Shown in pieces: positions 18,098-45,054 of a stretch of DNA of 64,000 bases (positions are counted from its first letter, which is position 1; every line of letters starts with the position of its first letter). The stretch comes from Oopsacas minuta (Eukaryota > Animalia > Porifera): assembly GCA_024704765.1 (NCBI GenBank), contig JAKMXF010000188.1:669715-733714 (forward strand). The letters run 5' to 3'. The translations under genes and the position numbers were made by a program. The notes under the pieces were generated by a model. It was not told the DNA's origin, searched no databases, and was given only the letters and a program-made list of their open reading frames with translations.

Positions 18098-20293
18098 ATG
18101 TCTAGTACCTCACACGCGTATCCACAGAGCTCAAGTCCAGCTGATCTGAGTGATGTTCATATTCTGCATAATGCTCAGTTATTAGTAAAAGAACCATGGA
18201 CTGCAAACAATGAAGGTATATCTCGAGGTGCTAAAATAAAATGGCTTGCTCAAATATGTCGTGGTAGAAAATTACAAAAAGATGCATTTATATTGAATCC
18301 TAATTGGCAAGAGGATATTCTCGTAGAGGTGCGTATCCTTCAAAAGCTCCAGCACACTTCTCTCTGCCACTATTTAGGTTTATTCTTCCCACCTGGTTCT
18401 ACCAGTCAGAAGATGCCTTATTTTGTATACGAGAATATTGGGTATCCGTTAAATCTGTACTTATATGAGAACGGGGCCGAACTACAGCCCCGAGTAAAAT
18501 CCGGTATTGCACTTGATATTTGCTCTGGCTTATCTTTCCTACATAGTAGGCAGGTGGTGCATCGTGGTATGTGTCCGGAAGCAGTTAACATTTATCAGAG
18601 CGGAGATTTCATGCGAGCTAAGATTACAGATCTCGGTGTAGCACGGTGTATTTCTGTGACAGCTCAACTTATTGGGAGCAAACATCAACCTTATATACCC
18701 TTAGAAGGTAAGGATCCAGACTATACACTACAACCTTCATGGGATGTGTATTCGTTTGGTATACTAGTTCTAGAATTATTAACTCAAGAAAAACCGCTAG
18801 GAGTAGAGACATTTATCGTGGATCCACAAACAAAGCATCAAGATGAAAAGTTCATTAAAGTTAGTCCGACTGAGCACATCCATATGTTACTTAGAATTGT
18901 TATGAAGGTACCAATGTATGTGCAGTATGGTTATCTAATACAAGAGTGTGTAAAATCTGATTATCAAAATAGGCCACTTACGATGTTTATTTTAGAAAAA
19001 ATACAAGAGATGCCAATTCAACAAGAAATGTTAAAAAACCAACTCAATCAAAGAGGTCCTACCAAAACAAACACTTTACCCTCCCCCTTACAGATTGATA
19101 AACAAGATAACGTTCCTAAATATGACGATCATATGCAGTATACTCTTTTGCAGTCTCCTTCTACTAACGGAACTACCAGTTTTGTGAATCCTATGACAAT
19201 AACAGATAATTTGAATTTATCAATGAACCACAAAATAGCACAAGATAACTTATTGAAACGATCTCTTTCAGAAGATGTAAGTGAATCTGTTGATAAGAGT
19301 ATTGGTCAGATTAGAAGGATGTCTGCACATTCTCAGGAGCATGATCATGTAGTTAACGAAGCAGAAGATTTCATATATTTATCACAATATCTAAGAGATA
19401 ATAGACATAGAAAATTACCGACCACGTTTGGACGTTGTATAGCATTAATCCACGACAACAAATTAGTATTATATGAGATAACTCAGGGAGAAATGTATGT
19501 CCTGGAGCCGAAAACGCAACAATGGAATGTTTTAGCCGACAAAATGCCCGTACGTCTGGGCGGGATCTGTGTGTATGGATCTAGGTTATATGTATTAGGC
19601 GGGTTTATAAAATCTAAAGGTGGATATGAAAATGCTGAGCAAAACAAACATATTTTCTGGTGTAAAATGACTGATAAAGATAATAAAGTTGTTCGATCAG
19701 ACCTTCCTGATACGTTATACTGCCATAAAGTGCCCTCTGTTGCTGTCTATAATGACTTCATACTTGTTATAGGAGGTGATACAAAGCGCAATTCTATTGA
19801 GGTCTACGACCCTAGACATGACCATTGGTACTTAAACACGTATATACCAAGCGACTCCAGAGGCAGTTTGGTTATAATGTCAGCTTGTGTTCGCGAAAAT
19901 TTATTATATCTAGCTCTGACTGATGAAAGGTCTCCTCCTACGTATATGTACAGTAGTTGTCTAGACACACTGTCTCAAGTTAAGAATAACACTCTAACAT
20001 GGAACAGATTCAATTCGCGAATACCTACTTGTAGTCCTAGACTAATTAGTTCAAAGAGTAAGATGTATGCTGTGGGAGGTGGTGGAGATTTCTCACGAAC
20101 TTCCTATGCTAAAGATGTGTATGGTTGGGATGAAGATGAGGATACCTGGGTGAAGACGACCTCTCTGAAGCAGGAGAGGAAATGCTGTGGAGTGTGCACT
20201 TTATTTGATGGGTCTATCTATGTTGCAGGGGGGAATTCGTACATGGAAACTCCTGATTACTTAGATATACAAGAGCTAGCGTTAATTCATTAA
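18098..20293 (+). CDS. Intronless protein-kinase-like (probable pseudokinase) + C-terminal Kelch beta-propeller protein
   Basis: Single ORF; the first in-frame ATG is at 18098. A kinase-like domain shows a subdomain IX motif DVYSFGILVLELLT and a DFG-like DLGVAR. However, HRD is replaced by HRG (VVHRGMCPEAVNIY) and no clear GxGxxG or VAIK lysine is present. The C-terminal half has repeated Kelch signatures (YVLGG, VIGGD, YAVGGGG, YVAGG, plus W/Y spacing). Confidence 0.65.
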   Translation: MSSTSHAYPQSSSPADLSDVHILHNAQLLVKEPWTANNEGISRGAKIKWLAQICRGRKLQKDAFILNPNWQEDILVEVRILQKLQHTSLCHYLGLFFPPGSTSQKMPYFVYENIGYPLNLYLYENGAELQPRVKSGIALDICSGLSFLHSRQVVHRGMCPEAVNIYQSGDFMRAKITDLGVARCISVTAQLIGSKHQPYIPLEGKDPDYTLQPSWDVYSFGILVLELLTQEKPLGVETFIVDPQTKHQDEKFIKVSPTEHIHMLLRIVMKVPMYVQYGYLIQECVKSDYQNRPLTMFILEKIQEMPIQQEMLKNQLNQRGPTKTNTLPSPLQIDKQDNVPKYDDHMQYTLLQSPSTNGTTSFVNPMTITDNLNLSMNHKIAQDNLLKRSLSEDVSESVDKSIGQIRRMSAHSQEHDHVVNEAEDFIYLSQYLRDNRHRKLPTTFGRCIALIHDNKLVLYEITQGEMYVLEPKTQQWNVLADKMPVRLGGICVYGSRLYVLGGFIKSKGGYENAEQNKHIFWCKMTDKDNKVVRSDLPDTLYCHKVPSVAVYNDFILVIGGDTKRNSIEVYDPRHDHWYLNTYIPSDSRGSLVIMSACVRENLLYLALTDERSPPTYMYSSCLDTLSQVKNNTLTWNRFNSRIPTCSPRLISSKSKMYAVGGGGDFSRTSYAKDVYGWDEDEDTWVKTTSLKQERKCCGVCTLFDGSIYVAGGNSYMETPDYLDIQELALIH

Positions 20294-22407: not shown

Positions 22408-23664
22408 ATGTTTGGTTCTACTACACAAACGATCTATTTTGATACTTCCAAGAAAGAACAATTTTCTCTGACTAATGGTTTGAAGATTCTATCTCAGAAA
22501 CTGAAATCTAAATGGAGACTTCTCTCTTGGAAAGATGATATCTCTATGCTCAGCTTAACCCCTGGACAGGTGTATATAATCCCTGGTCCGTGTGAGAAGT
22601 TCTCAGCTGGAGAGATCAAAGCAATCGCTCAGTTTTTAGAATCTGGAGGTAACCTGATAGTACTCCTGGGGGAGGGAGGGGAGAACAAGTATGACACCAA
22701 TATTAACTTCCTGCTGGAGGAGTATGGTATTATGGTAAATTCAGACTCTGTAATTCGTACTTCTTATTTCAAATATTTTCATCCTAAAGAAGTGTTGATA
22801 ACTGGTGGCCTGCTTAACCGCGAGATAACAAAGGCATCCCTATCACTTCACCATAGTAATGATGGTAACGAGCTCACAATGAATCTGCTATATCCGTTTG
22901 GTTCAACAGTGAGTATTAGAAAACCTGCTATACCTATAGTATCCACTGGAAACGCTTCTTACCCTCTCAACAGACCTGTGTGTGCATTTGCTAAGGCTGG
23001 TAAAGGAAAGATAGCAGTGCTAGGCTCAGTTGCATTTATTAGTGACAATTATATAGAGAAGGAAGATAACTTTCTTTTGCTAGAGATTATACTGGAATGG
23101 CTTACAGGGAATAGTATCAACATTAATCAGATTGATGCAGATGATCCTGATGTATCTGACTACTACTATCTCCCTTACACTTGTAAGCTAGCTAACAGAG
23201 TATACTTCTCATTGCAAGAGTGTGATGAGGTACCACGTGACTTCACTCGTCTCTACAATCACTCTCTATACACATTAGACTCTAGTGTCCTGCCGAATGT
23301 TTTAGAAGCTTACAAAGAGTTCCAAATCAAGCATGAGCCTCTCCAGCTCATCTCTCCTCAATTCGAAGCTCCCCTACCCTCTCTAAACGCAGCTGTATTC
23401 CTCCCTGAGCTGAATGAGAGTGCTCCTCCCCTGTTGGAGCTATACGACCTAGATGATCACTTCTCCTCTCCAAGGATACGATTAGCTCAGCTGACTAACA
23501 AATGTACTGATACAGACCTGGATTACTTTATCCATGAGGCTGCTAAGATATTGGGCGTGGACGATAAGGTATCCTCACAAGAACGGACTTCTAAGCTATA
23601 TCTGGAGTTAATTCTATCTCAGTTGATGGAGTTTAAGTTATCTTCTATTGATGAGCAGTATTAG
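22408..23664 (+). CDS. IFT52: Intraflagellar transport protein 52 (IFT-B complex), intronless
   Basis: 418-aa ORF. It is near-collinear with IFT52 along its length: GNLIVLLGEGGENKYDTNINFLLEEYGIMVNSDSVIRTSYFKYFHPKEVLITGGLLNREI, ...AVLGS..FISDNYIEKEDN..., LTGNSININQIDADDPDVSDYYYLPYT, HEPLQLISPQFEAPLPSLNAAVF, RLAQLTNKCTDTDLDYFIHEAAKILGV. Confidence 0.9.
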   Translation: MFGSTTQTIYFDTSKKEQFSLTNGLKILSQKLKSKWRLLSWKDDISMLSLTPGQVYIIPGPCEKFSAGEIKAIAQFLESGGNLIVLLGEGGENKYDTNINFLLEEYGIMVNSDSVIRTSYFKYFHPKEVLITGGLLNREITKASLSLHHSNDGNELTMNLLYPFGSTVSIRKPAIPIVSTGNASYPLNRPVCAFAKAGKGKIAVLGSVAFISDNYIEKEDNFLLLEIILEWLTGNSININQIDADDPDVSDYYYLPYTCKLANRVYFSLQECDEVPRDFTRLYNHSLYTLDSSVLPNVLEAYKEFQIKHEPLQLISPQFEAPLPSLNAAVFLPELNESAPPLLELYDLDDHFSSPRIRLAQLTNKCTDTDLDYFIHEAAKILGVDDKVSSQERTSKLYLELILSQLMEFKLSSIDEQY

Positions 23665-25727: not shown

Positions 25728-28700
25728 ATGCAACTCTACTATCGCTTCCTGTTGATATCATGTCTACTGGGTACAACCTTTGGCATGCAGTTGTTGGGAG
25801 CTAACCGCTGCACCTGGGGTCCCAGCTGGTGGTGTATTAACGAAACTACTGCTAATGACTGCGGCGCAACACAACATTGTATTGATAATGTATGGCAGAT
25901 TCCAGCAACTAAGAAACAACAATCCAAGGCAATGGAAAACTTCCTTAAAAATCCTTTAGGTTTGCTACCAATCGGAATCATACCACAGCCCGAACATAGC
26001 GTAAGGTTAACTCAGGACGCGTGTGACACCTGTTTGAATCGAGTACTAGAAATTAAAATTCTTATCAAGGATAATGCTACTAGTGAGGGATTCGAGAAAC
26101 TTCTTATAAATGAATGCATTAAATGGTTTAACAACGAGGACTCTTGTTACGAAATAATATCACATTCCAGTGAAGCTATATTCAGCATTATCAAACGCTC
26201 ATCTCCTGAACAGGTGTGTGACTTGGTATTACAATGTGGCAACACATGTAGTGAATGTAAGAGCGGCGTAGTTGTTGTTGAGAAGGCTCTTAGTCAGAAT
26301 TTAACTGATCAGGAAATAGTATACTTATTTATTGAGTTTTGTGCTAAGCTAGGTCCATACTCAGGTGAGTGTAAAGCCGCGGTTACTTCACGAATGGATC
26401 TTGTTATTGACGATTTGATTGACTTCCTGCAAAATGATCCTTGTGGTAGCCTAGGTGCTTGTGACTCATCTCTTCAACTAGTTTCTTCTGATGTTGAATG
26501 TACACTTTGTCTGTTTATTTGGGAATATGTTGTACACGAAGTTTCTCTGAACTCAACTGAAGAAGAGATCAAGAATGCATTGAAAGAGATATGCCAATAT
26601 CTAGGCAAGTTGAAGGATATCTGCAGTAACTTTGTCGATACTAACGTAGGTGATATAATTGTTGACATATTGAATAATGAATCACCACACAAATTCTGCA
26701 CACAAATTAAAGCTTGTAATAGCTCCAGTACTTTCGCATTATCTCCTCTACCTAAGCAAACTACATCAGCTCTACTCTGCAGTGCTCTAGCTAGCATATT
26801 CCAATCATTATTCAGCACAGATCTAATTGTACGATCTTTAGTTCAGGTGTTCTATATGACATGTAACATGCTGCCTGATGACACAGCTGTGGAGAATTGT
26901 CAGTCCTTCGTTATGCTCTACGTAGCTGGTATCTTACAGATAATCAATGCTGCTCTCCCCGTATCATATCTATGTATTGCCTTCCTGGGGAATAACCCTA
27001 ACGCTATTTCCAATATATATGATAATTCCATAGAATTCAGCCCAGCAGTTCACGGAGAAATAGAATGCGCTATTTGTGAGCTAGTACTAGAAATAGTGAG
27101 AATGGATATAGATACTAACAAATCTGTTAAGGACATACAAAATGACGTCAACATGACATGTCAGTTGCTTCCTGAAGGGACAATCAGAAAGGATTGTGAA
27201 TCAGGTGTTCTATTAGTCCCAGTTGTGTTAGATCTGCTAGCTCATAATTGTGTTCCGCATGAAATTTGCTATGTCCTTACTGCATGTCCAAATAACTCCT
27301 CTATAGAGACAACAACACTTGCTAAGCATGCCACACAGGTTGAGAGTTTTGATGTAACTTGTTTCGCCTGTAAAACGGGTGTTCAGCTGACGTTCTCATT
27401 CCTCGCCAGCAACCACACTGTGCAAGAAATGATATATATTATAAACGGTCTCTGTACTATAGTTAGTCCTAATTATGGATGTGAGGGGTTTCTCCAGGAT
27501 CTACTACCTCCACTATTGAATTATCTGCAGCAACAGTTCTCTCCTGAAGAGGTGTGTATAGGTATTGGGATGTGTCAGAATGATGAGGTAGGAGGCTACA
27601 CCGTGGATAAGAATGCTCCTATTGAAGAGAGTGAAGATATAGGATGTCTTGTATGTAGTGCATTAGCTACTTTACTTGATGATTACACTGGGTCTTATAG
27701 TGAAAATACAATAATTAGCGTTGCTAGTGCTTTGTGTAATCAGTTCGGTGAGTTTAGTGATGAGTGTAAAACTATCGTAGCGAATAACTTACCTAATATT
27801 ATCGAAAAACTGAGAGCTGGAGAATCTCCACAACAACTATGTGCTGAGGTTAAACTATGTCAGGCTGTTACATCTCGTGTCTCTGCCTCGCTAATGAAGG
27901 TTATAGCTGATAAAGATGAGGATCAGTGTGACACGTGTTTGGATGGTATTGACAGTATAAAGAGCATGTTAGCTAATAAGGGAGAAGATTATACTAAAGA
28001 CTATCTAATACAACAATGTATTGCTGCGTATTCTAAGATTATCTGTAATGAAGCTATTTCTCATTTGATTAAGATTATTCAGACCGGAGAGGATCCTTCT
28101 GATATCTGCTCTCAGCTAAATTTATGCAGTCTTGAGCCTGGATTGGAAAGTTATATTGATTGTGATACTTGTTTGAAATACGGGAAAGAATTAGAAAACA
28201 GAATAACTGATGAGACTTCTCAAGACGATTTTGATGATATTTTGTTCAATGTTTGCAGGCAGAATGCGAGTAAAACGATTTGTAAAATAGTTGTTAAACG
28301 GTTCTCTCAAGAACTCTTCAAACTAATGGTTACTCAGGGACAGAGCTACGAGCAAATATGTAAAGAAATGGCTGATTGTTCTGTTAGCTCTCCCTCTTTT
28401 GAAGTGAGTAGTAATACTATGTACTGTGCCGAATGCAAGTTTATTATAATGATAACTAAGCAAGCTATTTCTAAAACCAGTGAAGAAGATATTGAAAAGT
28501 ATTTAGATACCCTTTGTAATATGCTTGGAGAAAATCAGTATGAACAATGTAAGTATTTACTCGACTCTTTTATCAGCAAACTTTACGAAATTCTCAATGG
28601 TGATATGAGTGTTACTGAATTATGTGAAGAAATCAATGCTTGTTCCTCGCAACAGGTTACTTTACAGAAAACCTACTTACAACTCTGGGAGGAGTTGCAG

Positions 28701-28976
28701 CAGTCTCCCAGCACTGATTGTATCCTCTGCACTTGGATTAGTCAGTCTATACATCCACAGCTAATTGATATGTATTCGCATGAATCTTTGAAGTACAAAC
28801 TAGCTTCCAAATGCGCTAAACTACCTTTACATAATCAAGCTAGTTGCGAGGAGTTTGTTGAGAACAATTATTTCATTTCTGCTCTTAAGTCCAACTCCAA
28901 TTCTCCTATCTGTCAAGCTATTAATATCTGTCAGGGCAAGTCTAGAACTCCGGCTGGGTTTTCTCTTTTCATTTAA
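25728..28976 (+). CDS. Prosaposin-like secreted protein: signal peptide, N-terminal saposin-A-type domain and about 10 saposin-B-type domains; intronless
   Basis: 1082-aa ORF starting MQLYYRFLLISCLLGTTFG (signal-peptide-like). A SapA-like CTWGPSWWCINETTANDCGATQHC follows. Ten repeats each open with CxxC and carry the six-Cys saposin-B spacing (CDTCL, CSECK, CTLCL, CAICE, CFACK, CLVCS, CDTCL, CDTCL, CAECK, CILCT), each followed by ...C...C...C...C. Confidence 0.82.
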   Translation: MQLYYRFLLISCLLGTTFGMQLLGANRCTWGPSWWCINETTANDCGATQHCIDNVWQIPATKKQQSKAMENFLKNPLGLLPIGIIPQPEHSVRLTQDACDTCLNRVLEIKILIKDNATSEGFEKLLINECIKWFNNEDSCYEIISHSSEAIFSIIKRSSPEQVCDLVLQCGNTCSECKSGVVVVEKALSQNLTDQEIVYLFIEFCAKLGPYSGECKAAVTSRMDLVIDDLIDFLQNDPCGSLGACDSSLQLVSSDVECTLCLFIWEYVVHEVSLNSTEEEIKNALKEICQYLGKLKDICSNFVDTNVGDIIVDILNNESPHKFCTQIKACNSSSTFALSPLPKQTTSALLCSALASIFQSLFSTDLIVRSLVQVFYMTCNMLPDDTAVENCQSFVMLYVAGILQIINAALPVSYLCIAFLGNNPNAISNIYDNSIEFSPAVHGEIECAICELVLEIVRMDIDTNKSVKDIQNDVNMTCQLLPEGTIRKDCESGVLLVPVVLDLLAHNCVPHEICYVLTACPNNSSIETTTLAKHATQVESFDVTCFACKTGVQLTFSFLASNHTVQEMIYIINGLCTIVSPNYGCEGFLQDLLPPLLNYLQQQFSPEEVCIGIGMCQNDEVGGYTVDKNAPIEESEDIGCLVCSALATLLDDYTGSYSENTIISVASALCNQFGEFSDECKTIVANNLPNIIEKLRAGESPQQLCAEVKLCQAVTSRVSASLMKVIADKDEDQCDTCLDGIDSIKSMLANKGEDYTKDYLIQQCIAAYSKIICNEAISHLIKIIQTGEDPSDICSQLNLCSLEPGLESYIDCDTCLKYGKELENRITDETSQDDFDDILFNVCRQNASKTICKIVVKRFSQELFKLMVTQGQSYEQICKEMADCSVSSPSFEVSSNTMYCAECKFIIMITKQAISKTSEEDIEKYLDTLCNMLGENQYEQCKYLLDSFISKLYEILNGDMSVTELCEEINACSSQQVTLQKTYLQLWEELQQSPSTDCILCTWISQSIHPQLIDMYSHESLKYKLASKCAKLPLHNQASCEEFVENNYFISALKSNSNSPICQAINICQGKSRTPAGFSLFI

Positions 28977-29289
28977 CAGCACTATTTGCCTACCTTTATT
29001 GTATTTATAGATTTGATTCTGCATGTCAACCCCTTGTTATTTACCTTTGTATTTTAGCGGCAGTATATTGTACTATTCACTGTTTGTAAGTATTTACTGC
29101 ACATTATTGTATGTACTAAAAAGATATACGATTTAGGACTTCTTTGTACTGTATTATCTTCTTTTTAATAAAATCATTTATTCTTTCTTTAATTAATTAT
29201 AGATTTGTGAATTTATTCGACGTAATGATATGAGGGTATTGTATCTAGCTGTAAATATGTAAAATGAAATTGTTTTCATATTTCGGTAC

Positions 29290-29504
29290 CGTAATATGGG
29301 GCTACTTTTGTCCAAATATTGAAGTTTTCTTAAAATATCGATATTATCTGGAAATAAACTTCAAAATGATAATGTATATTTTAACATTTCCTTAAATTTG
29401 TCTAGTCATTTTCAGGTTTACCACAGAATCATCTCGACATTTCTTAAAAGTTCAATATTTTGGGGTAAAATAAACCTAGTGGGCCAAAGTAGCCCCATTT
29501 TACG
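29290..29504. mobile_element. Candidate MITE (215 bp) with TIR CGTAA(T/A)ATGGGGCTACTTTG
   Basis: Left cgtaatatggggctacttttgtcca at 29290. Right tgggccaaagtagccccattttacg ending at 29504. No clear TSD. Confidence 0.45.
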
Positions 29505-30186
29505 TTATACACGTTATTAATTTATGTACTGTTTCAGCAAATATATTGCAACGTCATAAAGTGCTCGACAATATCAAAATTTGTTGATTATTAGCCAACA
29601 TCTTCGATTTCGATTCCTGAAACAGAGGCATAGCCTCTATAAAGAAGGTAATGTTTAGGTGGCTTACTAAGTCATTAGGCTTGGGATTTGGTTACCACTG
29701 AGCCACCTAATTTGTCGAGAACTGCAAATTGAATCAGAATTTCGCATTTTCCAGTTTCTCATATGTAAATTTATTTTTGCTTTAATGAATACAAGTAAGC
29801 AAATATTTGAAATCTTGAAATAATCATATAGACTTGCTTAACGCTTATACATAGGTAATCAAGTACGCTCACTACCGCCTCACTAAGCTGAATCCAAATT
29901 TTGCATTTTCAAGTTTCTTATATGTAAATAGTTGTTGTTCTTATAGTTGTTGTTTTTATGAATGTAAAGTGAACAAATGTCTAAATTGCCACAACAACTC
30001 CGTGTTCAATGGTTATCCTAGTGTAAGGGGTACGCAGTTTTCAATTACGATGATTGATTGTCAACAACGTCTTGTGAATATTAGTGTATCTATTATTTCT
30101 AGATGCCTACTTCTAGTGCAACTGGAGAAGTTGAATTTGAGCTTCAAATCAGACAATTAATACATAAAATTGAAATTCAGTTTTGT

Positions 30187-30757
30187 GAAACAAACGTAAT
30201 CCAATATACTGTAAACAAACGTAATCCAATATACTGTAAACAAACGTAATCCAATATACTGTAAACAAACGTAATCCAATATACTGTAAACAAACGTAAT
30301 CCAATATACTGTAAACAAACGTAATCCAATATACTGTAAACAAACGTAATCCAATATACTGTATACAAACGTAATCCAATATACTGTAAACAAACGTAAT
30401 CCAATATACTGTAAACAAACGTAATCCAATATACTGTAAACAAACGTAATCCAATATACTGTAAACAAACGTAATCCAATATACTGTATACAAACGTAAT
30501 CCAATATACTGTAAACAAACGTAATCCAATATACTGTAAACAAACGTAATCCAATATACTGTAAACAAACGTAATCCAATATACTGTAAACAAACGTAAT
30601 CCAATATACTGTAAACAAACGTAATCCAATATACTGTAAACAAACGTAATCCAATATACTGTAAACAAACGTAATCCAATATACTGTAAACAAACGTAAT
30701 CCAATATACTGTAAACAAACGTAATCCAATATACTGTATACAAACGTAATCCAATAT
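30187..30757. repeat. Minisatellite: 25-bp unit AAACAAACGTAATCCAATATACTGT in about 23 tandem copies
   Basis: Direct reading of the sequence. Copies are near-identical, with a recurring A-to-T variant (tgtatacaaacg) at copies spaced 5 and 10 units apart (30361, 30486, 30736). The three overlapping minus-strand ORFs here are frame artefacts. Confidence 0.95.
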
Positions 30758-31066
30758 GAAATATAGTAACTGAAGTCAACGTTAGTTGAGGAGAATTATA
30801 TAAAATGGTGAATTCTTTTGGATTGATATAAAATAAGGGTGCCCGTATCTTGGAGGTCCGGATCTCGGAGGTTCGACTGTATTACATTTATCTTAGAATA
30901 ACTTGAATAACTTGACATTAACCTCCTTCTCACAGGGTCCCATTGAACTGGCTCATGTGTCTACTCATCTTCTATATATTTCAATCTACACATTTTCCAT
31001 CAAATGTCTCAATATAATTATACTTAATGTCTTTTATTCTATCCTAATAAGCTCCATCTACACAGC

Positions 31067-31863
31067 ATGGTATCTGTTGGTGCTGATCCACTTTCTGTTT
31101 TTCTTCGCATACGGCCATTCTCAGCTAAAGAGAGTTCTGATGATGGAAATAATATATCTTGTATCAAAGTTCTAAATAATTCAGAGTTGATAACCATCCC
31201 TCCTCTGTGCTCTCACGCACACAAGGGCCTCCAGAAGGTAACTGTTGACAAGGAGATATGAATATACTCTTATACCATTTTGTTTAATTTACAAGCTGTT
31301 TTTCTTATTAATTAGGGAGTGAGTGATATTCAAACTTTGTTCAGCTTCACTAGAATATTCGATGATAATACTGGACAGAAAGATTTTTATGATTCAGCTA
31401 TTCTGGATTATATTCAGGACTTTCTGAAAGGTAAACTTTCTTATTATTCAATTAGGTAATTATTAGGATGTAGTATACTCCGCTTATAGGGTTACACACT
31501 CTATTTGCATGGTTCTGTCTCTGACCAGGTTACCCTATTATTCTGGACTCAAAGCTTCACCAGTGACTCTACAAATAGAGTCTATTGTATGGAGAATTTG
31601 TTAAAACTTTGGTAGAGGAGTCTTAATATAAGTTTGTTAAGTATTCTGGTACTACACATTTTGTCAAAACAACACAATACGGATTATATCATATCCATAA
31701 AGCCTCGTACCACTTAAATTTTCTTTTCCACATCTTTGAATAACCCCAAAGTGGAGTATTGGAATCTCAGAATTCAGAGCCATACAACACCTCTACTACT
31801 TTACAGCTGAGCGAACACAATTGCACAATACTACTATATTTGTGTTGTGTTATGTTGCTTTTG

Positions 31864-31896
<33 letters not shown>

Positions 31897-34800
31897 GCTC
31901 TTTTAGGTCACAATGTATTAATATTCGCTTACGGTGTAACTAATGCTGGTAAGACCTACACTATGGCTGGTACTCGATCTAATCCAGGAGTTCTTCCACG
32001 AGCTCTCGACAGTATCTTCCAAGCAATAGAGCACCAACAACCTACTAACATATTTTACAAACCTAGAGGTGAGGCTATACATACTTATTTATTATTATAC
32101 GAGCCGCTTCGCTTATTTGCGGTTTGCGAACATTTTGTGTCCACATGGGACTCGGCAATTCATGCCTCGAAGTTAGCAAAGTAGTAAATTGCAAAATTGA
32201 ATTGATGAATTAATATTCCTATTTGTTTTACTTTATATTCATAAAAACAACCAAAAATTTACATATGATTAATTCAAAAGTGTTAAAATCAGATTCAGCA
32301 CTTTCGATATATTTTTGCCAAGTTTTATTCAATTTTGTATACTTTCTTGGTATACAGCCATAGTTGGGCGACATCTCAGTATTGAGAAATCAGAATTCAA
32401 TACAATATTGCATAAATCCTTTCCTTGACAACAGACAAATAGACAAACAAACAAGCAAATATGGCAATTTAATAATATACAGGGTACCTCAAAAGTTCTG
32501 CAACAAATTTTTACACCAATTTTTTATATCAAACCATAATTCAACTGCTGTTAAATTCATACTTATGGACAAAGGCTATATAATATATTCAATAAACTGT
32601 GATAGTTCAATTCTGGTCTTTTGTTATGTCAGGTATATCTGAACTACAGAAGAGGTCTCCTATTATTCATTTATTTCTAAATGGTAAGAAGCAGAATCAA
32701 ATTCTAAAAGCCCTTGGTTCACCGAAATTTTCACCATCGTTGATATCCCACACGATAAAACGATATATTGAGACAGGCGATATCGTAGATAAGCAACGAT
32801 CAGGTCGGCCAAGAACAATTAGGACTCCTGCTAACAAGAAAAAGGTTCGTCAGATTTTAACTCGTCGGCCCACGATGTCGGAATAGATAAGGAATCTGCT
32901 CGACGAATAATCAAGAAAGACTTAGGTATGAAATGTTTCAAACGAAGTAGAGTAGAGTCTCTTAATGGCCAGGGAATTAATAAGAGAATCCAAAGATGTC
33001 GTAGACTGCTGGATCGACTCAAAAATGTCAACAGTGATTCAATTGTATTTTCGGATGAGAAGATCTTCTGTATTGAGGAGAAGTGGAACTCTCAAAAATT
33101 CGCGGGTTTATTCCTTAACACGTAATGACATCCCAGAAAACTTAAGAAGTGTCCAGAAATTACAACACCCAAAAGTATTATGGTGGGCGGGAATTTCAGT
33201 TTTTGGGAAAACTCCGTTAGTATTCATACCCAAAGGTACAAAAATTAATGCTCAGGTATACAAAGATATTATACTGGAGAAACATGTCTTAGCAATTGGT
33301 TTGACCTTCATGAAAAACAAGGCATGGCTATTTCAACAGGATGGTGCACCGGCTCATACCGCTAAAATATCTCAAGATTGGTTGTCAAGTAAGATCCCAG
33401 CGTGTTTGAACCGTGACGAATGGCCCCCTTCAAGTCCTGACCTAAACCCTTGTGATTATTATTTGTGGGGAAGACTAGAGACACTAGTAAACAATAGATC
33501 CCACAACAGTATTCCAGCACTAAAACGAGCGTTAGAGAAAGCTTGATGCGAATTAGATCAGGATGAGGTCGCTCGGGCATGCAAATTATTTCTATCCAGA
33601 CTTAAAGATTGTCTGAAGGCCGGAGGGAATAGATTTGAAAACAAGTAGAGCCAAATATTTTCGTATATGATAGTTAGACATAATAGCATTTTCTTAACAA
33701 AATATTAGTCTGGTTATATGCTTTACATGTATAAGAATTACATTTAAATTTTGTTGCAAAACTTTTGAGACCCCCTGTAGATTATTGATTATGCTTTAAT
33801 CGTTGCGAATCTTACGATATTGCCCCACTCTGTTATCCCTGGCCTTCTAAAAGTAAACCTGTGAACTATGCTTCAATTCAGAGAAATTAATATAATATAC
33901 GGTGTACCTGCATAAACCGATACTCGTTTGGGACATGAAAATTTTGTCGGATTATGCAGGTGAATTTGTATTGTCGAATGCTGTTTCAGATCCGAAACTC
34001 TGTGTCGGATTATAAGGTGTTCTGGATTATAAGGTGTTCTGGATTATAAAGGTGTCGGTTTATGCAGGTTCCACTGTAGTCATAATATATAGGGGCTCAT
34101 AGATTTGCATCGCTAAAATAATCGATTTTGATGCTTCCTGAAATAACGAATTGTAGATTTGGCTAATCATATCAAATAGTTCGATTTTTTAGAGTAAAAT
34201 ATATACATTAACTCTGCCCGCTACTGATATAACATTACCTTATATTAAACATAAAGCAGCTGTGTTGCATGTGTTTTAGAAGTCACAATATGAACTATTT
34301 CTGTAGCTTTAATGCTTTATATACATACATGCATTATTATCCCTAATTCATACTTTTCCGTGATTTTTGATATTTAATGGCTCTCTTACAATTATATAGG
34401 GTTCGCTAATACAGTACGACTAGATAGAGAGAGTGCAGATCATGAAGCAGTTAAAAAGCGCAAGTTCTTGTCCAGAAAACTAACTAGACATAATCTTATT
34501 TCTGATCTAAGCAAGCTGTCAGATGGCACTGATTCTCAGACCTCCACTATATTCTCTACTCACCCTAGTGACCAGGAAATGGGAGAATCCTTAAAAAGCT
34601 CTAGAATTAATCCAGATCCCTTAGACTGTAGGTAGGTATATCTCTTAATATAAATTGCTGTAATTCGGCATAACATTCCATAATTAATTGGATTCATTAT
34701 ATATTGTAGTGCTCTGGAGATGGAGCACAATGAAGCTAGCTATTCAATATGGGTATCCTTTGTGGAGATACATAACGAATCGATATACGACCTGCTAGAT

Positions 34801-37800
34801 GGTGTTAATACTCACAAGACAGGATCTATCAGTAAAGTACCTCTGAAGCTGGCAGATGATCAGGATGGAAATGTGTACATTAAGGATATAATTGAGGTTA
34901 TTATTCATGTGAAGTTTTATAATTCTATCCCTTCCCCTTTCTTTAGCATTACGCAGGGGCGTTGGAATCTGGGGGTCATTGTGAGTATATCATGAAAAGT
35001 GTAGCGAATTAGCATCCTTCTCGCCATAAGACTAGCATTGTTTATGTACAAAGTGGCCAGGCCACGCTTCCAACACCACTGTTACTACTTCGATGTTATA
35101 CAATGCACAGTAATTCTATAAAACATTAGATTAGTTGCGCTCCTTCGTGTCTGCTTCACCAAAATGGAGCACGCTCCTCCTATCCACTCTTGATTCATAA
35201 ATTGAGCTGCGTTCCAGGTTTCGCTCCTCATAATTGGAGTTTTAACCTGGAGCGCTGCTCTTGAAGCGCGATCCTTTAATGCTCTGATAATATGAAATTT
35301 AAAAATATTTGGAAGTAATTTGTGAATTGATGATAATTGAAAAGGTATTGCAACTTGTAATATTATTTCCGCTTATCCTACACTTTCCTATCTTTCTTGA
35401 TTATTTAATTAAAGAAGATTTTTTCAAATTTTGAACTACGACACACTTATTTGATTCAATAGTTCATGTACACCTGTCATAAATATTTTAAGGAATAATT
35501 ACGATTTGTTAGTGCCAGTGAAAATTTAGTGTTAAATTAACACCGTCATAAGGTACCCAAAAGTGCAACGGCACATGGTTGAGAACCTTGAATAAGGTAT
35601 ACGTAGGTCATATTATCTTTATTACAATTCAGATAGGATGTAATACAGCTATGGAAGCACTACACTTATTCCTGCTAGGAGAACAGCAGAGAAGAGTTGG
35701 AGAAACTAAGTTGAATCTTAATTCTTCTCGCAGTCATATCATCTTCTCTCTCAGATGTATAAGGATAGATGAGAGTGGAACTCCTACTCGTGTTAATACA
35801 CTCAGTCTTGTAGACTTAGCTGGATCTGAGAGACAGGTTCATATTATTAATCATGTTACTTTGTGTTATGCCATAGGCTATGGTTATACATATTTCCGCT
35901 ACTTGTAAGTCACTACGTCACAAATTTCCCATATTCTCATCGTAATGATTAGATTTTTAGGAAATTGGAAACTTATTTAGGTTCTATGTATCTACAAAAT
36001 ATAATCCCGAAAATCCGAACATTTTTGAAATAATTTCAGGTCATTAATTATGAATTATCGTGTATGTTAGGCTTTACAGTTTTCATCCAGGGCAGGGACA
36101 GATAAAACCTTCATAATTCATATCATAAATTTCAGAAATTTAGTCTTCTCCTCACTCATATTTAGTAGCCAATACGGTAATTGACCCCTTAGATTTTCAA
36201 CTTGCATATTAAGCAGCTACTATTGTAATTATAATTATTAGTTTATTCTGTGATTGTTGTATCAGACCTCTCGATTATTTCACTCCCTCGCTATTTACCT
36301 ATATCACCCCTGATTTATACTTGGCTACGACCTTTCCCAGACTATTGTATATCATATCTCTTCTATTCATTTAGATTGGAACAAAGGCTGAGGGAGAGCG
36401 TCTGAAGGAAGCTGGTAATATAAATAAATCCCTCCTTACTCTTGGGAGATGTATAGAGATTATGAGATATAATCAGAACAAGACTACTAGTCTGAAAATT
36501 GTTCCTTTTAGGGAAACAAAACTCACTCGTCTATTTCAATCATATCTAGTTGGTAGGAGTGAGCTAGGCTATGAGGGAAAGCTTACAATGATTGTAAATA
36601 TCTCACAGGTAATCTTATAATATTTCTCCAAATGTAGAAGGGGATATAATTTATTTTTCACAATTACTTACTTGGGTGGGTGATGCACGAAATATACTAT
36701 TGTATGCATACGTATTTGCAGGGATAAATGAGAAGATGAAGTTACATAGTTTTTACAAGTATTAGCTAATTAATGGGATTGTTGTCTAGGATTTAGTGCA
36801 TGGTTCTCAACCTGTGATCATCGAATGATCAAACATGACCAAATAGGTTGGGCCCAGGGTGTCGCCATGATATACATTTTCAAAAAAATTGTGTTCATAA
36901 CCCATGAGAGTTTGAGATACCCTGACCTAGGGTGAGGGTACCAATTTGGGTAATATGAGATTTCCTGTTTTTCTCTCTTATAAATCAAAACTCTCAATAA
37001 TTTTACTGTTTCCCTGACACAATATCTTCCATAAGTAATTCTACGTTATATATTAACTAGCATAAGCAAATTTATATTATTTAGACTGCTAATACATTCG
37101 ATGAGACTTGTCACGCTCTTAAATTTTCCGCGGTTGCTCGTGAGGTAATCCCAGTAACAATTGAGGTTCCTAGACCCACATTCCAATCAGCCAGTGAAAC
37201 TACTGGGTTTACTAGCATGTTAGAAAAGACATTGAATGAGTACAGTAATAATACTACAAAGGATATAGAAGAGATGAATGGAGATGAGATTAAGAATTAT
37301 TGTGGTGACCTTGAGAAGCAGAATAATAATCTTATTGAGTTGGTTAGTTTGTTGTATTATATTGAGCTACTTTCGTTTTGATGTGAAATTTAACAGACTA
37401 TAATCTGTATATACTGACCGCTGTTGCTTCGTAAACAATCAGAACATTATCACAATGTGTCAAATATACATACATTTATGCTAATTTTATAATATACTAA
37501 CAAGAATCATTCACAATTAACTAACGAACTACGGGTAACTAGCAAACAAACTAAACAACATTTATTATTGAAAGGATATTCCTGTCTATGTATTATATAG
37601 ATATAGACAATATGATTATTATCTATACAAATGTATAGGTGCTTAAATCGAAGGAAGAGTGTCTAGAAATTGAAAATAGATTAAGAAAAGAATTGTGTTT
37701 ACAATTCGCGAATGAACTCAATGCAATAAAGCAAAGAGAAGCTAACAAGCAATTGAAAGCAAAGGAAAATCTCAACCTTTATCACGAGGCTAGAATGGAT

Positions 37801-40800
37801 ATTGTTCAGCGTTCTATTCAGAAGGACAGAAGGCTTAGGATGAGACGTTCCCATTCCGTAGACTCTATTGAACCAATTAAAACCTGTATTAACTATAGCG
37901 ATGCAATGGATACTACTATCACTGGATCTGTCAGGTAAGTATTTAACTTTTATATCTAATCATACAGTTAACTGAATTCTAGAATATTCTATGTTTCTTG
38001 TTCAGCGAATATGTGGATACGTTTAGTTCTACTCTACATACAATGAAAAAACTTGATTTTGATGACACAGACCTGAGACTTAAATATGAAGAAAATGTTA
38101 AGGAGCTAGCTCGTCTTCAGAGGGAGAAATCTAAAATCAGTCAAGATTTCGAATCTGCACAAGATCTTCTCGAGGATATGCAGCGTGATATGCGAGTAAT
38201 GAGATCAGAGTATGAGAACAAGTTAATGGATTCAATGCAATCTGCTGAAGATAAGGTATTTGTATGTATATTGTATGTAGAAGTATTTACAATGGTGTTT
38301 GGCTTTAACAAATCGTATTTTCCGCAATATTGTTGATAAATATTTTTCGATAATTTGGTAGAGATTGAATACCATACTTATGTATTACATTGACAACACC
38401 GTATATTTATTCACTGTATTCTTCCTACTAGGTTGAGGTCAGGAGAGAGATTGCTCGTTTGTCAGGAGAGCTTAAGATGACTCTTGCACAAAAAGAGGAG
38501 CTTTACACATTTGTGAGTATCCACTATATAAATCTAATATTACACAGTGATGTGAAGGGATAATGGCTTATATTCCACCATCGAAATTCAACATATAATT
38601 TGATTAATTCTATTTTCCATACATATTTGGTTGTTTAATTCGAAACAGTGAAATCTTCCTGTTTCTTATATAATTCTTATGAATGTCTTCTTCAGGTGAA
38701 AGAATTAGAAAAACAGTTAGCAGATTTACAGGAACAGTTATTGATAAAAAATTCTAGCAAAGAAGATGGAGATCAAGAGAGAATACAGAAGATGAATAAT
38801 TTAAATTTTGCTGACTCTGCGGAAAACTCTAACATGATAGTTAGATTGAAGGAATTAGAGTCAGAAAACTCTCGTTAGTAGCATCGCCTGCTAATATATG
38901 TATTGTTATACCTTATACGGTATGCCGTGTATAAGAACATTATAAGACATTCCCGAAGTTGTTCTTATAACCGGCATCCGCTGTAATTTATTTGTTCTGT
39001 TCTATCCGTCTGTCTGTCTGAAGCAATTCTGTATTAACCAGCGTTCATAGATATTTGTCCCACTTCTATATCTATACCACTAAATATACTATGTTCCTAT
39101 TTCATTGGATAGGTCCACTAAAGCGGTGAAATGTTGGAACATTTGATGTCATATTGGATTTTGTAGTTAGCAAATTACAACTGATACACAAGTCAGATAT
39201 ACTGAATACTCACTAATTAGCACATAGTACTAAAATGTAGGCATCTGGATTTGGATATTTGTAGTTCTCATCTTTTTGGCTCAATTTTACATGATTCTAT
39301 GTAGAGTATACAGTGGGTGGTACTTCCTTAAGGGCCGCCAATTTTCAATAGAAATCGACCACTATATAGCGTCCACCTGTACATAACGGCCACTTTTGGC
39401 CAGTCCCTTAGGTGGCCTTAATTTAGTCTTTAATTCTTAGAAATTTTTTTTCTAGGAATGAAAGACCAAATTAAGGATTATTCTATACAAATCTCTGAGA
39501 AATGCACTGAACTAGTCAGTATGCAGACAAAACTTTTGGAACTAGAGGAAAGTAAGCTTTTGACAATTGAATCTTATCAGACTGATATCAAGAGACTTGG
39601 TGAAGAAACCCGATCGCTTAACGATAATTTAGAATCAACTCAGAAACAGAATGATACATTTGTAACTAAAAACACCAAATTGACTAATCAATTAAATAAG
39701 TTGAAAGATAAAAATATACAAAATGAAGAATTAAAGGATACGAAAATTTCTGAGCTAGAAAATAAGATCACAGAACACAAGGTCACAATATCTGACCTTA
39801 AAGAACAGGCTTCAAGGTTGTTTATATGTGTACCTTCAATTAATTTGTAATATAATAAATATATTTTGTAAACATGAACGTAATATTTGGTACTTTAGTG
39901 CAGAAGAGAGACTAACTGAACTACAGGCTGAACAGGCAGCGCGGGACGGAGAAGCTGTTTACTATCAATCTAAAATACGACAGTTAGAGGAGAAATACAG
40001 TCCATATGAAAAACAGGAGGATCACATCAATCAGCTTAAGTCTGAGCTTATTCATACTAAGAAACAATTGTTTGAAGATAGGATTAGTTATGAGAAGAAA
40101 ATTGGACAATTGGAAGGAGAAGTCAAACATTTGAGGTTTATTCCTGCAAGCATGCGATCTAATGATTTACCGAATTATGAAAGTATTGCTCCGAAATCAA
40201 CTCGTTCTTCTGACCGCACATACATCTCAATGAAGGACAGTGACTCCCCGCATTATGAAAGCATACACTCTTCTATGTTACAAGTATGTTTCATTTTAAC
40301 TATGAATATCTTAAGCATATCAATAGAACTTCGTTAGTATTAACACTACGTATTTGGCATTAGTCCAGTTAGTGAGTATAGTTTATATTCGCTATTACAC
40401 ATAAATGTATTACCGTGTTAAGCAATGCTACTGGCAAGACCATGACGTTACCAGGATCTGGCATATGCTTTAATCTTGTAGGACGTATCACATGTAACTG
40501 TGTTAGCTCCTGTTACTGCACAAGTTCCTGATGTGGAAGATACCGTTCGCTTATCTGAGCATAAATTGAATCAAAATCTCTCTCCTACTAATTCAGTTAA
40601 ACATACACCTAATCGTACTACTGTATCAGGAAGAGATGATTCATTCGACAGCTATGCTTCTTGGCTACCAGGTTTGCTAAATATTATTTTGTATTTAATA
40701 TTCGAGTGATAAACCCAACCAGATGCTTATTACAAATTGTAAATCCATTTTTCAATTATTCTACTCCTGAATATTAATTTGTCTTAATCAATATTCAATA

Positions 40801-41779
40801 CTTCTATACAGTAGTATCTGTCTTTGACGACCCCTACCACCAGCGATCACCTACCTTTACGATCGCTTTCCCCAACAACACGAATAGATTAGATACCTAC
40901 TAATTGACCTGCGGTGAGCCATCACCTGCCTTTTACAACCGCATATTTCGGAGCAGCTGGTGGCCGCAAATTCCAAGTTTACTGTATCTGTATTTATAAT
41001 ATTATATTCTTGTTAAGCCAGCTACTTTTCTAATGAAATTGGTACGTAACCAATAGAGTGTTTAACCAGTGGTTTAGCAATTCCCATGGGTGTACATTCT
41101 AACCTCTAACAACAGACCTCAATGATCCGTTCATGATATATTGAATCTGTTTAAATGTTTTAGGCGTTGTCTTACGGAAGAGTACTAGTACTTAAGTCCT
41201 CTTAAATTTTTATTTTCCTTATTTCTAGCTATCTCATCTGAACCTATTTATGAAAATTTCGGTAGCCTGCAAGACAATTCCCCAGATTTAGTAGATCCCA
41301 GTTTCTCCACAGATGACAGAGTTACTCACATTGTAAATATCATACAACCTTCATGCAAAGGTAAGAGAAAATCTTTACAAGACGATACATCCAACCCTCC
41401 GTCTAAAAAACGTAGTAAGACTGGTAAATTAATGAAGAGTAGTATAACTAAGAAACGAACCTCTGCGAGAAATGCTAAGAAAGAAATTAAACAAGAAGCA
41501 TCTACACAAGTTAAACTATCTCCTATTCCCGAAGGGGATACACCTAGAAAAGGGTTTCAGTTCTTCGGTACTCCTTCTTTCAAGAAATCGAAAAAGGGAA
41601 GTACTCCTGAAGAGCGAACGACAGCTACTACCCCACTATCTATATTCTCGAGAGATAAATCCAAGCTTAAATCCAAAAAGAAGTTGCCTAAGAAATCAGA
41701 AATATCTGCTCCCATCGAATTATTACAACCTGCCTTACCTGCAGAAAATCCCCTCAGAAGATTGCGTCCTAGAAAATAA
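31067..41779 (+). CDS. Kinesin-6 family motor protein (KIF20/MKLP2-like): N-terminal motor domain with a long loop-6 insertion, coiled-coil stalk, basic Lys-rich tail; 16 exons
   Basis: Exons: 31067-31237, 31316-31430, 31907-32068, 34400-34631, 34710-34896, 35633-35836, 36375-36608, 37085-37342, 37639-37934, 38006-38255, 38432-38512, 38696-38873, 39456-39816, 39899-40283, 40482-40671, 41229-41779. They total 3855 nt, or 1284 aa plus a stop, and all phases are consistent. Kinesin motifs: [11 protein letters not shown]; P-loop [18 protein letters not shown]; switch [10 protein letters not shown]; switch [11 protein letters not shown]; neck [23 protein letters not shown]...[13 protein letters not shown]. 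The 5' end is uncertain, since the first Met may be internal to an unseen upstream exon. Confidence 0.85.
31864..31897. repeat. (ATT)n microsatellite, about 11 units, in kinesin intron 2
   Basis: attattatt... read directly. It explains the poly-Ile stretch in spurious ORF 31759-32184. Confidence 0.95.
32480..33777 (+). mobile_element. Tc1/mariner-superfamily DNA transposon (about 1.3 kb), degenerate copy, inserted in kinesin intron 3 with a TA target-site duplication
   Basis: 28-bp TIRs: cagggtacctcaaaagttctgcaacaaa at 32480- and ttgttgcaaaacttttgagaccccctg ending at 33777. Flanking TA sits at 32478-32479 and 33778-33779. Internal transposase ORF fragments (32599-32886, 32928-33125, 32965-33546) have an HTH-like N-terminus and a DDE region containing [11 protein letters not shown] ... 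[17 protein letters not shown]. Confidence 0.88.
32599..33546 (+). pseudogene. Frameshifted Tc1/mariner transposase remnant
   Basis: The transposase is split over three overlapping ORFs in different frames, so at least two frameshifts. The catalytic region [12 protein letters not shown]...[22 protein letters not shown] is recognisable. Confidence 0.8.
33900..34076. mobile_element. Tc1-like MITE (177 bp) with TA TSD, termini TA|C(A/G)GTG, GTCGGATTAT subterminal repeats
   Basis: Left end cggtgtacctgcataaaccgatac. Right end gtgtcggtttatgcaggttccactg (reverse complement cagtggaacctgcataaaccgacac). TA on both flanks (33898-99, 34077-78). A related truncated copy ends at 61681 (...ggaggttccactg|ta). 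Confidence 0.55.
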
Positions 41780-43321
41780 TCTCTCACTAAATACAGAATT
41801 TAGAATTTTGACTAGAACTCATTTCTTTTCTCTATAGTGATTCTTATGCACAAAGTACAAGTACATGTAGTAATCAGTGTACATCTTTGTATTCTGTTGA
41901 ACGAATGAATTCAAATAAGGTTATTCTGTGATATTAATATAGTGGAACCTCCAAAAGCGGGGTAAGTAAACTTCAACTAACATCAATTTTTATCCAAATG
42001 GACTTCTGAACAAGGAAGCAGGGAAAGATATTTGGTACCCAATCAGGCTATCTACAGTACCCGCTTCGGAAGGTCCCACTGTATTTATTTTTATCGGTTA
42101 ATTCATGAAATGATGTACGTACACACTTTGGAGTTCCATAACTTAAATCATGTACCCTGCTAGTGGTAATAGGCCCAGAGCAGTGGCGGATACTTTTGAA
42201 TTATTGGGGGTGCTCAACAAATTAACCAAAATTGATTTCCTATGAGAGCACTAAATTGTATTTATCGAGAATACCTATAGCTATCTTTTCAACTTGATCA
42301 CAAATGTATACTTTGTGCACAATTATCAAACTTAAATAAAACTTTTCTTCGCCCACACTTTCACCGAAAATATTGGCCAGTGGCACTAGGGGGTGGTCAA
42401 GCACCCCCTAGTGCCACTGGCCATGACGTAGGAAATTAAACGGGTATTTTGGTCACATGTTTGTTCTTGGTTTGTGTCAGTGTTACTATACAACCATCAG
42501 TGCATCTTGCTACTCAACCATAAGAGTAGCAGACATTATGTATTATTATATCCCTTTTAAACATCCTTTTCCAAACAATTTTTGCTTACATGCGATAATT
42601 GCTTCTTGAGGGATGGAAATGTGCAGTTAATCGCTTTTGATCACTAAATTCTGGTGATTATTTTGGACATTACTGCAATATTCATTCATATCTATCAATC
42701 AATGTATTGTCAATTCATACATTCAGTAATTAGTTATGGGATTACTTATATGTCGGCTAGTTGACAAATAAGTAATTATGGCCGACTTATAAGGATTTAG
42801 CCGCATATAAGTAATCCCATTAGTTATTAGTTTTCTTCTTTTGAAACATGCTGAGTGGAGCTGACTTAACAACAGAAGAACACCTTGTCTTTCATTTGCT
42901 CCTGGTAAGCCAGATCCTGGACCTCTCCTGCTCTTAGCTCGGCGAGATTAAAATACACATATAAGTACAGTACTCCCGTCTGACTATTTATCCTCAATTC
43001 TTGAGGTTTTGTGCATGATGAAGTGTTGCATTTATGGGAATTTAGTATTAACTGTTTCCATGCAACATGCTTTGTTGAGAAGCACCCAAACCTTTTATAA
43101 CAATACCTATTAACTTTTGATGTAACAAAGCAACTAAATGATCGAAAGTGACCAGTTTAACCTTCCACGCTTAGTTGTATAAATTAGTTGATTAAATTAT
43201 CTAAGATAAGTAAGATTGCTTTGTGAATTTGTGAAAGCATCAAGTTACCATAAGGGATGATACCAAGGGATTGTGAATAAACTGATTGTACCTTATTTGT
43301 TTGTAGTATTTGTGTTTTAAA

Positions 43322-44623: not shown

Positions 44624-44785
44624 CTAATTGGACTTGATTATTTTGTAATTAAGTTTTTTACTATGCAGACTAAACTATACCCAGTATAGTGGCTCAGTAC
44701 TAAAAGGTTGACTTTTCTTAGCATATATGTGTGTGTTCACTCTCCACTTCACACCTTTTGAGATTAACACACAAAATTGGCATGT

Positions 44786-45054
44786 ACAGTACACCCTCGC
44801 TAATCCGAACACCACTGTTACGATTGCAAAATAATACGTCGGATTAACAAATGCATTGAAAAATACTATAGAATCTGGGAGGACTTTTTTCGAAAGTGTA
44901 CAAACGATGGAATGGGGCCTAACATGCGTAATATCGTATTAGATATTGATTTGTTGTAGAATTGGATATATATCGGCTATGTTTTTACGTTTGAAACAAT
45001 TTTCAAAAAGATTGTATAAGCTTAGGCCCTTTTCAGATTAGCGAGGGTCTGCTG
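44786..45054. mobile_element. Tc1-like MITE (about 270 bp) with TA TSD; TIR CAG(T/C)A(C/G)ACCCTCGCTAATC
   Basis: Left cagtacaccctcgctaatccgaa at 44786. Right ...ttcagattagcgagggtctgctg ending at 45054. TA on both flanks. A solo left-end copy lies at 48057-48090. Confidence 0.5.

Follow-up and report, generated by a model that had tools for sequence, protein, structure and literature searches.

A single-coding-exon prosaposin-like gene in the glass sponge Oopsacas minuta, with ten canonical saposin units and a four-cysteine hydrophobic derivative

The closest described counterparts of the gene reported here, vertebrate prosaposin (PSAP) and Drosophila Sap-r, begin with a signal peptide and an N-terminal SapA domain, followed by tandem, acidic, six-cysteine SapB units separated by linkers. 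Human PSAP has four units and Sap-r, a proven lysosomal prosaposin orthologue whose loss leads to sphingolipid storage, has eight (PMC5319729, PMC5483003). We analysed a 64,000-nucleotide stretch of contig JAKMXF010000188.1 (hereafter the window) from Oopsacas minuta (Porifera, Hexactinellida, Lyssacinosida), which contains a prosaposin-like gene encoding 1082 amino acids (aa). The product shares all of these features with PSAP and Sap-r, as well as an N-glycosylation sequon that lies between cysteine 2 and cysteine 3 (C2 and C3) at the same offset, found in five of ten canonical units here and in five of eight in Sap-r (PMC5319729). In contrast to both, it has ten canonical units (D1 to D10) plus one derived unit (Dx), which is hydrophobic and lacks C1 and C6, a D1-D2 linker of three residues, a conserved D9-D10 linker and a C-terminal GFSLFI tail; it also lacks the C-terminal SapA that is present in vertebrate PSAP. 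In our view, the locus is probably a functional, single-coding-exon gene for a lysosomal or phagosomal saposin precursor of the prosaposin type.

Other multi-unit precursors resemble the O. minuta protein in part. The large multi-saposin proteins of other invertebrates likewise place a SapA and at least ten tandem SapB units in one polypeptide, with net acidic units (mean −4.6), but they include recent unit duplicates, and all of their units are similar to the generic D3 type. The layout of proSP-B (UniProt P07988), which we take to comprise an N-terminal SapA, SapB units with a hydrophobic one between ordinary ones, and no C-terminal SapA, is also similar. However, proSP-B has three units, and mature SP-B is cationic (+7), has seven cysteines and forms a disulfide dimer, whereas Dx is anionic (−3) and has four cysteines; we see no evidence of homology between Dx and SP-B beyond their shared SapB origin. 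Finally, the protist saposin-like protein (SAPLIP) precursors, such as the naegleriapores and Dictyostelium AplE and AplK, contain several SapB units in a secreted precursor that is thought or shown to be cleaved (PMC11542183). These have two to a few units, no SapA and demonstrated pore formation, whereas the O. minuta protein has an N-terminal SapA.

The gene is a single open reading frame (ORF) of 1082 codons plus stop, with an ATG start and zero internal stops in the ORF listing (Table 1). An in-frame TAG stop lies 12 nucleotides (nt) 5′ of the ATG, and an A occupies position −3. The local DNA is about 35% GC, for which the chance of a 1082-codon open frame, calculated from base composition, is about 1e-35. 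A first-pass annotation, made from the letters of the window, had proposed one uninterrupted prosaposin-like ORF of about 3.2 kb. The frame is indeed uninterrupted and free of frameshifts, and an exact-sequence look-up returned a deposited model with the identical 1082 residues (KAI6655624.1, ‘hypothetical protein LOD99_2122’, UniProt A0AAV7K5C1). The UniProt label ‘Proactivator polypeptide’ is an automatic, similarity-based name. The gene is already deposited but uncharacterised, and it belongs to a well-known kind. A search of the literature on sponge saposins found no paper on it, only MANF papers and incidental mentions, and saposin does not come up in the paper on the O. minuta genome (PMC10280926). 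KAI6655624.1 belongs to a 90%-identity cluster that is represented by a fragment of 57 aa, and a homolog search therefore does not display it, which is a pitfall for claims that genes are ‘not annotated’. An antisense ORF of 114 aa (26474-26818) was set aside as a chance ORF.

Table 1. Coordinates of the prosaposin-like gene, its encoded domains and flanking signal (window positions; E, E-value).
Feature	Position	Strand	Evidence and remarks
Complete prosaposin-like coding sequence	25728..28976	+	ORF listing; exact-sequence look-up; collinear orthologs sharing its start and stop
Signal-peptide-like N-terminus, aa 1-19 (MQLYYRFLLISCLLGTTFG)	25728..25784	+	Kyte-Doolittle 19-residue window 1.69; T and G at −3/−1; kept in all orthologs
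SapA, aa 26-57, sole SapA of the protein	25803..25898	+	Pfam PF02199; SapA HMM: one N-terminal copy per ortholog
SapB D1, aa 99-170, six Cys, sequon offset 17	26022..26237	+	Cys pattern; Pfam weak; profile vs human saposin B, E 2.3e-6
SapB D2, aa 174-245	26247..26462	+	Pfam SapB_1 E 1.1e-6
SapB D3, aa 258-330, most consensus-like	26499..26717	+	SapB_1 E 2.4e-8; SapB_2 E 1.5e-9; human saposin C E 1.2e-6
Dx, aa 348-419, between D3 and D4, four-Cys SapB derivative	26769..26984	+	C351, C379, C391, C416
SapB D4, aa 447-520	27066..27287	+	Pfam SapB_1 E 0.0017; hhalign to D3 88-93%
SapB D5, aa 545-616	27360..27575	+	Pfam SapB_1 E 2.8e-5; SapB_2 E 3.8e-5
SapB D6, aa 640-711	27645..27860	+	Pfam SapB_2 E 3.1e-9; NK-lysin match E 6e-5
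SapB D7, aa 734-800	27927..28127	+	Pfam SapB_2 E 1.9e-5; amoebapore A match E 0.0019
SapB D8, aa 812-884, least conserved (39% identity)	28161..28379	+	No Pfam match in O. minuta; ortholog SapB_2 E 0.011-0.15; six invariant Cys
SapB D9, aa 900-972	28425..28643	+	Pfam SapB_1 E 2.3e-5; saposin A E 2.5e-6
D9-D10 linker, aa 973-997 (SQQVTLQKTYLQLWEELQQSPSTD)	28644..28718	+	83% mean identity, 64% invariant columns; dN/dS 0.03-0.05
SapB D10, aa 998-1068, pI 6.97	28719..28931	+	No Pfam match; hhalign to D9 90%, D3 88%
C-terminal tail, aa 1069-1082, ends GFSLFI, plus stop	28932..28976	+	Ortholog ends alike
First AATAAA polyadenylation-signal match	29167..29172	+	191 nt past the saposin stop codon; pattern match only

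Searched with Pfam as a whole, the protein matches SapA (E 3.7e-12; 46.4 bits, where the cut-off is 22), SapB_1 (E 9.5e-24, five independent stretches) and SapB_2 (E 1.3e-20, four stretches). Scanning for cysteine spacing yields exactly ten C-x2-C...C...C...C-x5-C units, which is the number of six-cysteine, CxxC-type repeats that had first been counted by eye. When the units are searched one by one, Pfam recognises seven of the ten at E ≤ 0.01 and five at the gathering score, so the count by hidden Markov model (HMM) is seven rather than about four, leaving D1, D8 and D10 sub-threshold or unmatched. We take these three as SapB units because their cysteine spacing is invariant in seven species, hhalign matches them to clear units (75-90%), and their profiles retrieve solved human saposins over the full unit length. 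D8 aligns to D9 at 89% with hhalign and matches solved saposins at E 0.06-0.15, while the D10 profile has 12 matches, every one of them a saposin, including saposin A at E 0.008. Across the units, the solved structures that match best come from the four human saposins (A, B, C and D). The original inventory of ten canonical units thus stands, although it overlooked the eleventh, four-cysteine unit Dx; counting this unit, Pfam detects seven of eleven, and its SapB models under-count diverged units. The SapA-type domain that had been proposed behind a signal peptide is clear from Pfam, and the signal peptide itself is predicted heuristically, by hydrophobicity and the −3/−1 rule only. An AlphaFold2 model of the full-length protein, built from a seven-sequence alignment, has a mean predicted local distance difference test (pLDDT) score of 44.5 and a predicted template modelling (pTM) score of 0.22, and is good for helical periodicity only.

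Six orthologs were recovered from ENA/Logan assemblies (1042-1104 aa, 53-65% identical to the O. minuta protein). Their IFT52 proteins are 82-88% identical to O. minuta IFT52, compared with at most 53% for any named animal, and together with the shared synteny this leads us to infer that they come from other glass sponges. All six have uninterrupted ORFs with ten canonical units each, and all 60 canonical cysteines and the four of Dx (64 in all) are invariant across the seven species. The overall ratio of nonsynonymous to synonymous substitution (dN/dS, Nei-Gojobori) is 0.15-0.22, and it lies below 0.55 for each of the eleven units in every computable pair (in one pair, the dS of D1 and D9 is saturated), so that every unit is under purifying selection. 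The 14-residue tail has a dN/dS of 0.98 in one of two pairs, and the ortholog C-termini read ...GFSLFI or GLSLSF. One ortholog, P0004, seems truncated at its N-terminus by the gene caller's choice of start; its frame runs upstream with a signal peptide and SapA. The gene order kinase-IFT52-saposin is kept in five other genomes, usually followed by the major vault protein (MVP) gene. A Logan contig that had been considered as transcript evidence (L004, 4,035 bp) was dropped, since its full collinearity (100%) with the genomic contig L003 and its low-complexity end make it uninformative.

The units of the O. minuta array differ strongly from one another, with a mean pairwise identity of 24% and a maximum of 32% (0.32), and there is no DNA-level tandem repeat inside the ORF. 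In contrast, recent duplicates occur in every other protein that we examined with at least ten units (maximum unit identity 0.66-1.00). Each O. minuta unit has a one-to-one ortholog in the six other species, and this correspondence is confined to the glass-sponge group. There is no one-to-one unit orthology with the arrays of demosponges, cnidarians, a nemertean or a spider; nearly all foreign units match D3 best, which leaves an ancestral metazoan ten-unit architecture unsupported. Synonymous sites are saturated across the divergence of the sampled lineages. Because of the low unit identity, the unit-wise orthology and this saturation, we regard the array as old: judged by these comparisons, it predates the split of the eight sampled lineages and is fully differentiated, and the arrays of other lineages were enlarged or homogenised independently. 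The idea of a tandem domain expansion therefore holds in a historical sense, yet the event was neither recent nor unique to this lineage. An ancient array of ten canonical units and one four-cysteine unit, each distinct, suggests that the units divide the labour between them rather than adding to dosage. This fixed 10+1 array, set against the re-duplicated, homogeneous arrays of demosponges, cnidarians, molluscs and tunicates, offers a clean case for studying the subfunctionalisation of saposin modules.

The number of units is not unusual in itself. An exhaustive HMMER search, covering 1.84 billion cluster representatives, returned 2575 matches at E ≤ 1e-3, and among the best 147 non-self representatives 40 have at least ten canonical SapB units. 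Examples are Styela clava (31), Aplysia (29), Elysia (28), Bulinus (26), Apostichopus (18), a Tachypleus ‘prosaposin’ (15), the demosponge Halichondria panicea (14; XP_064387396), Mercenaria (14), Oedothorax (13), Clytia (12), the demosponge Dysidea avara (10; XP_065912710) and the protist Anaeramoeba (10). It was thus correct to describe the O. minuta protein as expanded more than twofold over the four human domains, but not as unusual, given these relatives and the eight units of Sap-r. Precursors with 8-31 saposins are widespread in invertebrates, and this gene was deposited and auto-named, so that as a finding the expansion matters little. The single coding exon was likewise recognised correctly. 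Its setting among multi-exon genes holds only in part: some downstream genes, such as MVP, have several exons, but the two upstream neighbours are also single-exon. With these neighbours and a genome-wide mean of 1.59 introns per gene in O. minuta (PMC10280926), a single-exon structure is ordinary.

Ten of the eleven units have an isoelectric point (pI) of 4.05-4.79 (D10 being the exception; Table 1), and net charges range from −8 to 0. In D1-D5, a sequon (NxS/T) lies exactly 17 residues after C1, which is presumably where human saposins A and C are glycosylated (see the alignment to saposin C). The majority of linkers span 11-30 residues and show little conservation, as cleavable linkers would. 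Judging from vertebrate PSAP and Drosophila Sap-r, the product would enter the endoplasmic reticulum through its N-terminal signal peptide, form three disulfides per SapB unit, receive N-glycans on five units, each at the position canonical for saposins, and be routed to acidic endolysosomal or phagosomal compartments. Proteolysis within the 11-30-residue linkers would then release small acidic saposin-like modules, which could bind and perturb membranes and pass lipids to hydrolases. In an animal that digests bacteria intracellularly, the modules may also help to dismantle ingested membranes. A precursor of the prosaposin type fits the protein because it combines a signal peptide, SapA, acidic units and sequons at offset 17. 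Of the two roles originally offered for a prosaposin-like protein, lysosomal lipid binding or antimicrobial activity, the acidic pI and the glycosylation position favour the lysosomal one, while sequence does not settle the choice.

Several observations weigh against this interpretation. The D1-D2 linker (aa 171-173; 26238-26246) consists of three residues, G-N-T, of which GN is invariant in all species; clean separation of D1 and D2 is thus not possible, and the two probably act as a fused pair instead of being split by proteolysis. The most conserved segments of the protein are a noncanonical hydrophobic unit and a linker, which a simple string of saposins does not predict. Pfam is blind to D8, D10 and Dx, and the structure models deserve little confidence (pLDDT 57 for Dx and 44.5 for the full length). 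Finally, there is no C-terminal SapA: the SapA HMM finds only the N-terminal copy, and the protein stops 14 residues past its last cysteine. The same ending in all orthologs indicates that this stop is genuine. Vertebrate prosaposin binds sortilin through its C-terminal region, whereas the sortilin-binding sequence of Sap-r has been reported in its N-terminal SapA. In 156 relatives, the SapA HMM places SapA at the N-terminus only in 40, at both ends in 49, at the C-terminus only in 18, and detects none in 49. Given the N-terminal motif of Sap-r and these 40 N-only relatives, the missing C-terminal SapA is no strong argument against lysosomal routing.

The constrained segments outside the SapB units were unexpected. 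Linkers of prosaposins are normally poorly conserved, yet the D9-D10 linker is the most conserved segment of the whole protein; a helix is predicted at aa 980-992 in the low-confidence model, and a binding or sorting role is possible. The other two are a motif that follows SapA, FLKNPxGLLPVG (aa 72-83; 25941-25976), and the C-terminal tail with its hydrophobic GFSLFI (aa 1077-1082; 28956-28973), both of them conserved and outside any domain.

Dx is the most conserved of the units, with four of four cysteines invariant, 80% identity, 54% invariant columns and a dN/dS of 0.05. Its cysteine spacing (28/12/25) equals that of C2-C3-C4-C5 in saposins, which indicates that C1 and C6, and hence the outer C1-C6 disulfide, have been lost. 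Its grand average of hydropathy (GRAVY) of 1.17 exceeds those of all 1300 canonical units of the 150 best relatives (mean 0.17, maximum 0.84), and is comparable to that of mature human SP-B, which we take to be 1.03. The eight most hydrophobic 72-residue windows of the comparison set are all Dx orthologs, including one from a more distant partial ortholog (P0198) with the unit order D1-D2-D3-Dx. A hydrophobic four-cysteine unit of this kind was not found in the large multi-saposin proteins of other invertebrates that we examined; among these relatives it is confined to the glass-sponge group. When an HMM is built from Dx, canonical SapB units from dozens of animals align to it in register (E ~1e-5), around a common core ‘vCniLP...C.sFv..Y’, so that its descent from SapB, as judged by sequence homology, is well supported. 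Unit-to-unit hhalign matches are weak (64% at best), Pfam gives no match, and sequence matches in the PDB are to saposin C only (E 0.55). The evidence that Dx takes the saposin fold is weaker and comes from modelling: in a Dx-only model with a pLDDT of 57, the top ten Foldseek matches in the PDB all belong to the saposin family, at E ≥ 0.07 and none at E ≤ 0.001. The best of these matches are open, lipid-bound saposin conformers, with the N-terminal domain of SP-B among them. The net charge of Dx is −3, and a 19-residue window at aa 402-420 reaches a Kyte-Doolittle value of 1.97. We rejected this window as a single-pass transmembrane segment in the main model, as it would put five to six disulfide-rich units in the cytosol. 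That Dx is a glass-sponge-specific membrane-inserting or fusogenic saposin, analogous to SP-B or to fusogenic saposin C, is a long shot. Hexactinellid tissues are syncytial, and a membrane-active Dx might have to do with how unusual the membrane biology of these animals is; if so, it would represent a new functional class of saposin-fold module that keeps just the two inner disulfides. As a conserved SapB derivative without the outer disulfide and with SP-B-like hydrophobicity, Dx is a testable membrane-active candidate, and it might be the only feature of the gene to repay experiments.

The same architecture could serve other ends. If the protein were an antimicrobial or pore-forming SAPLIP polyprotein, its cleaved peptides would mainly permeabilise bacterial membranes, either in phagosomes or after secretion. 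Sponges are bacterivorous phagotrophs, several SapB units per precursor are compatible with such a role, and single units also match NK-lysin (E 6e-5) and amoebapore A (E 0.002). Naegleria, C. elegans and Dictyostelium provide documented cases of multi-SAPLIP precursors that are processed to pore-forming peptides (PMC11542183). However, the acidic or neutral O. minuta units (net −8 to 0) are unlike the cationic NK-lysin and granulysin, and none of them has a strongly cationic surface of that type, although an amoebapore-type activity at low pH would be compatible with these charges. The N-terminal SapA and canonical sequons are traits of prosaposin and proSP-B, and the strongest matches are to lysosomal saposins, so we consider a mainly antimicrobial role unlikely.

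A largely unprocessed lipid-handling protein, in which Dx serves as an SP-B-like inserting or fusogenic module or as a membrane anchor while the flanking acidic units and the D9-D10 linker bind a partner or receptor, would accommodate the hydrophobicity of Dx (GRAVY 1.17, and 1.97 in the aa 402-420 window), the strong constraint on Dx and the D9-D10 linker, and the three-residue D1-D2 linker. An N-terminal SapA without a C-terminal one and an embedded hydrophobic unit presumably parallel proSP-B, and the best Foldseek matches of Dx are open, lipid-bound conformers. Against this, Dx is anionic (−3) where SP-B carries +7, and has four cysteines rather than seven; the structural support is thin (pLDDT 57, E ≥ 0.07); a protein that crossed the membrane once at Dx would, implausibly, have its downstream disulfide-rich units in the cytosol; and most linkers have the length and poor conservation of cleavable ones. 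We therefore find an unprocessed protein doubtful. It is barely credible that the locus is not functional, whether because the ORF arose by chance, because the gene is a pseudogene or because of an error in assembly or annotation, given a 1082-codon frame in 35% GC DNA whose start, stop and cysteines are all kept in seven or eight species, with a dN/dS of 0.15-0.22 and conserved synteny. A cleaved, lysosomal or phagosomal precursor of the prosaposin type remains the reading that we favour.

Upstream of the saposin gene in the window lie a kinase+Kelch gene (18098-20290; 731 aa, KAI6655622.1, ‘PLK4-like’), uninterrupted and identical to the deposited protein, and an IFT52 gene (22408-23664; KAI6655623.1), uninterrupted and 100% identical to LOD99_2121. 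With the saposin gene they form three consecutive intronless genes, and it is this block whose order is conserved in the five other genomes. Downstream, the MVP exons start 0.7-3.5 kb past the saposin stop in four other genomes of glass-sponge type (L001, L003, L005 and L006), compared with about 20 kb in O. minuta. The intervening stretch (~29000-49000) contains a kinesin-motor fragment (31759-32184), a DDE_3 transposase fragment (32965-33546), a TRAF/MATH ORF (43310-44623) and a 685-aa ORF without a Pfam match on the reverse strand (45412-47469), and it looks like a lineage-specific insertion or rearrangement. A tandem array of a 25-bp repeat (AAACAAACGTAATCCAATATACTGT; 22.8 copies, 99% matches) occupies 30188-30757, 1.2 kb downstream of the saposin gene, and the three overlapping reverse-strand ORFs of 190-201 aa at 30149-30779 are spurious products of this array.

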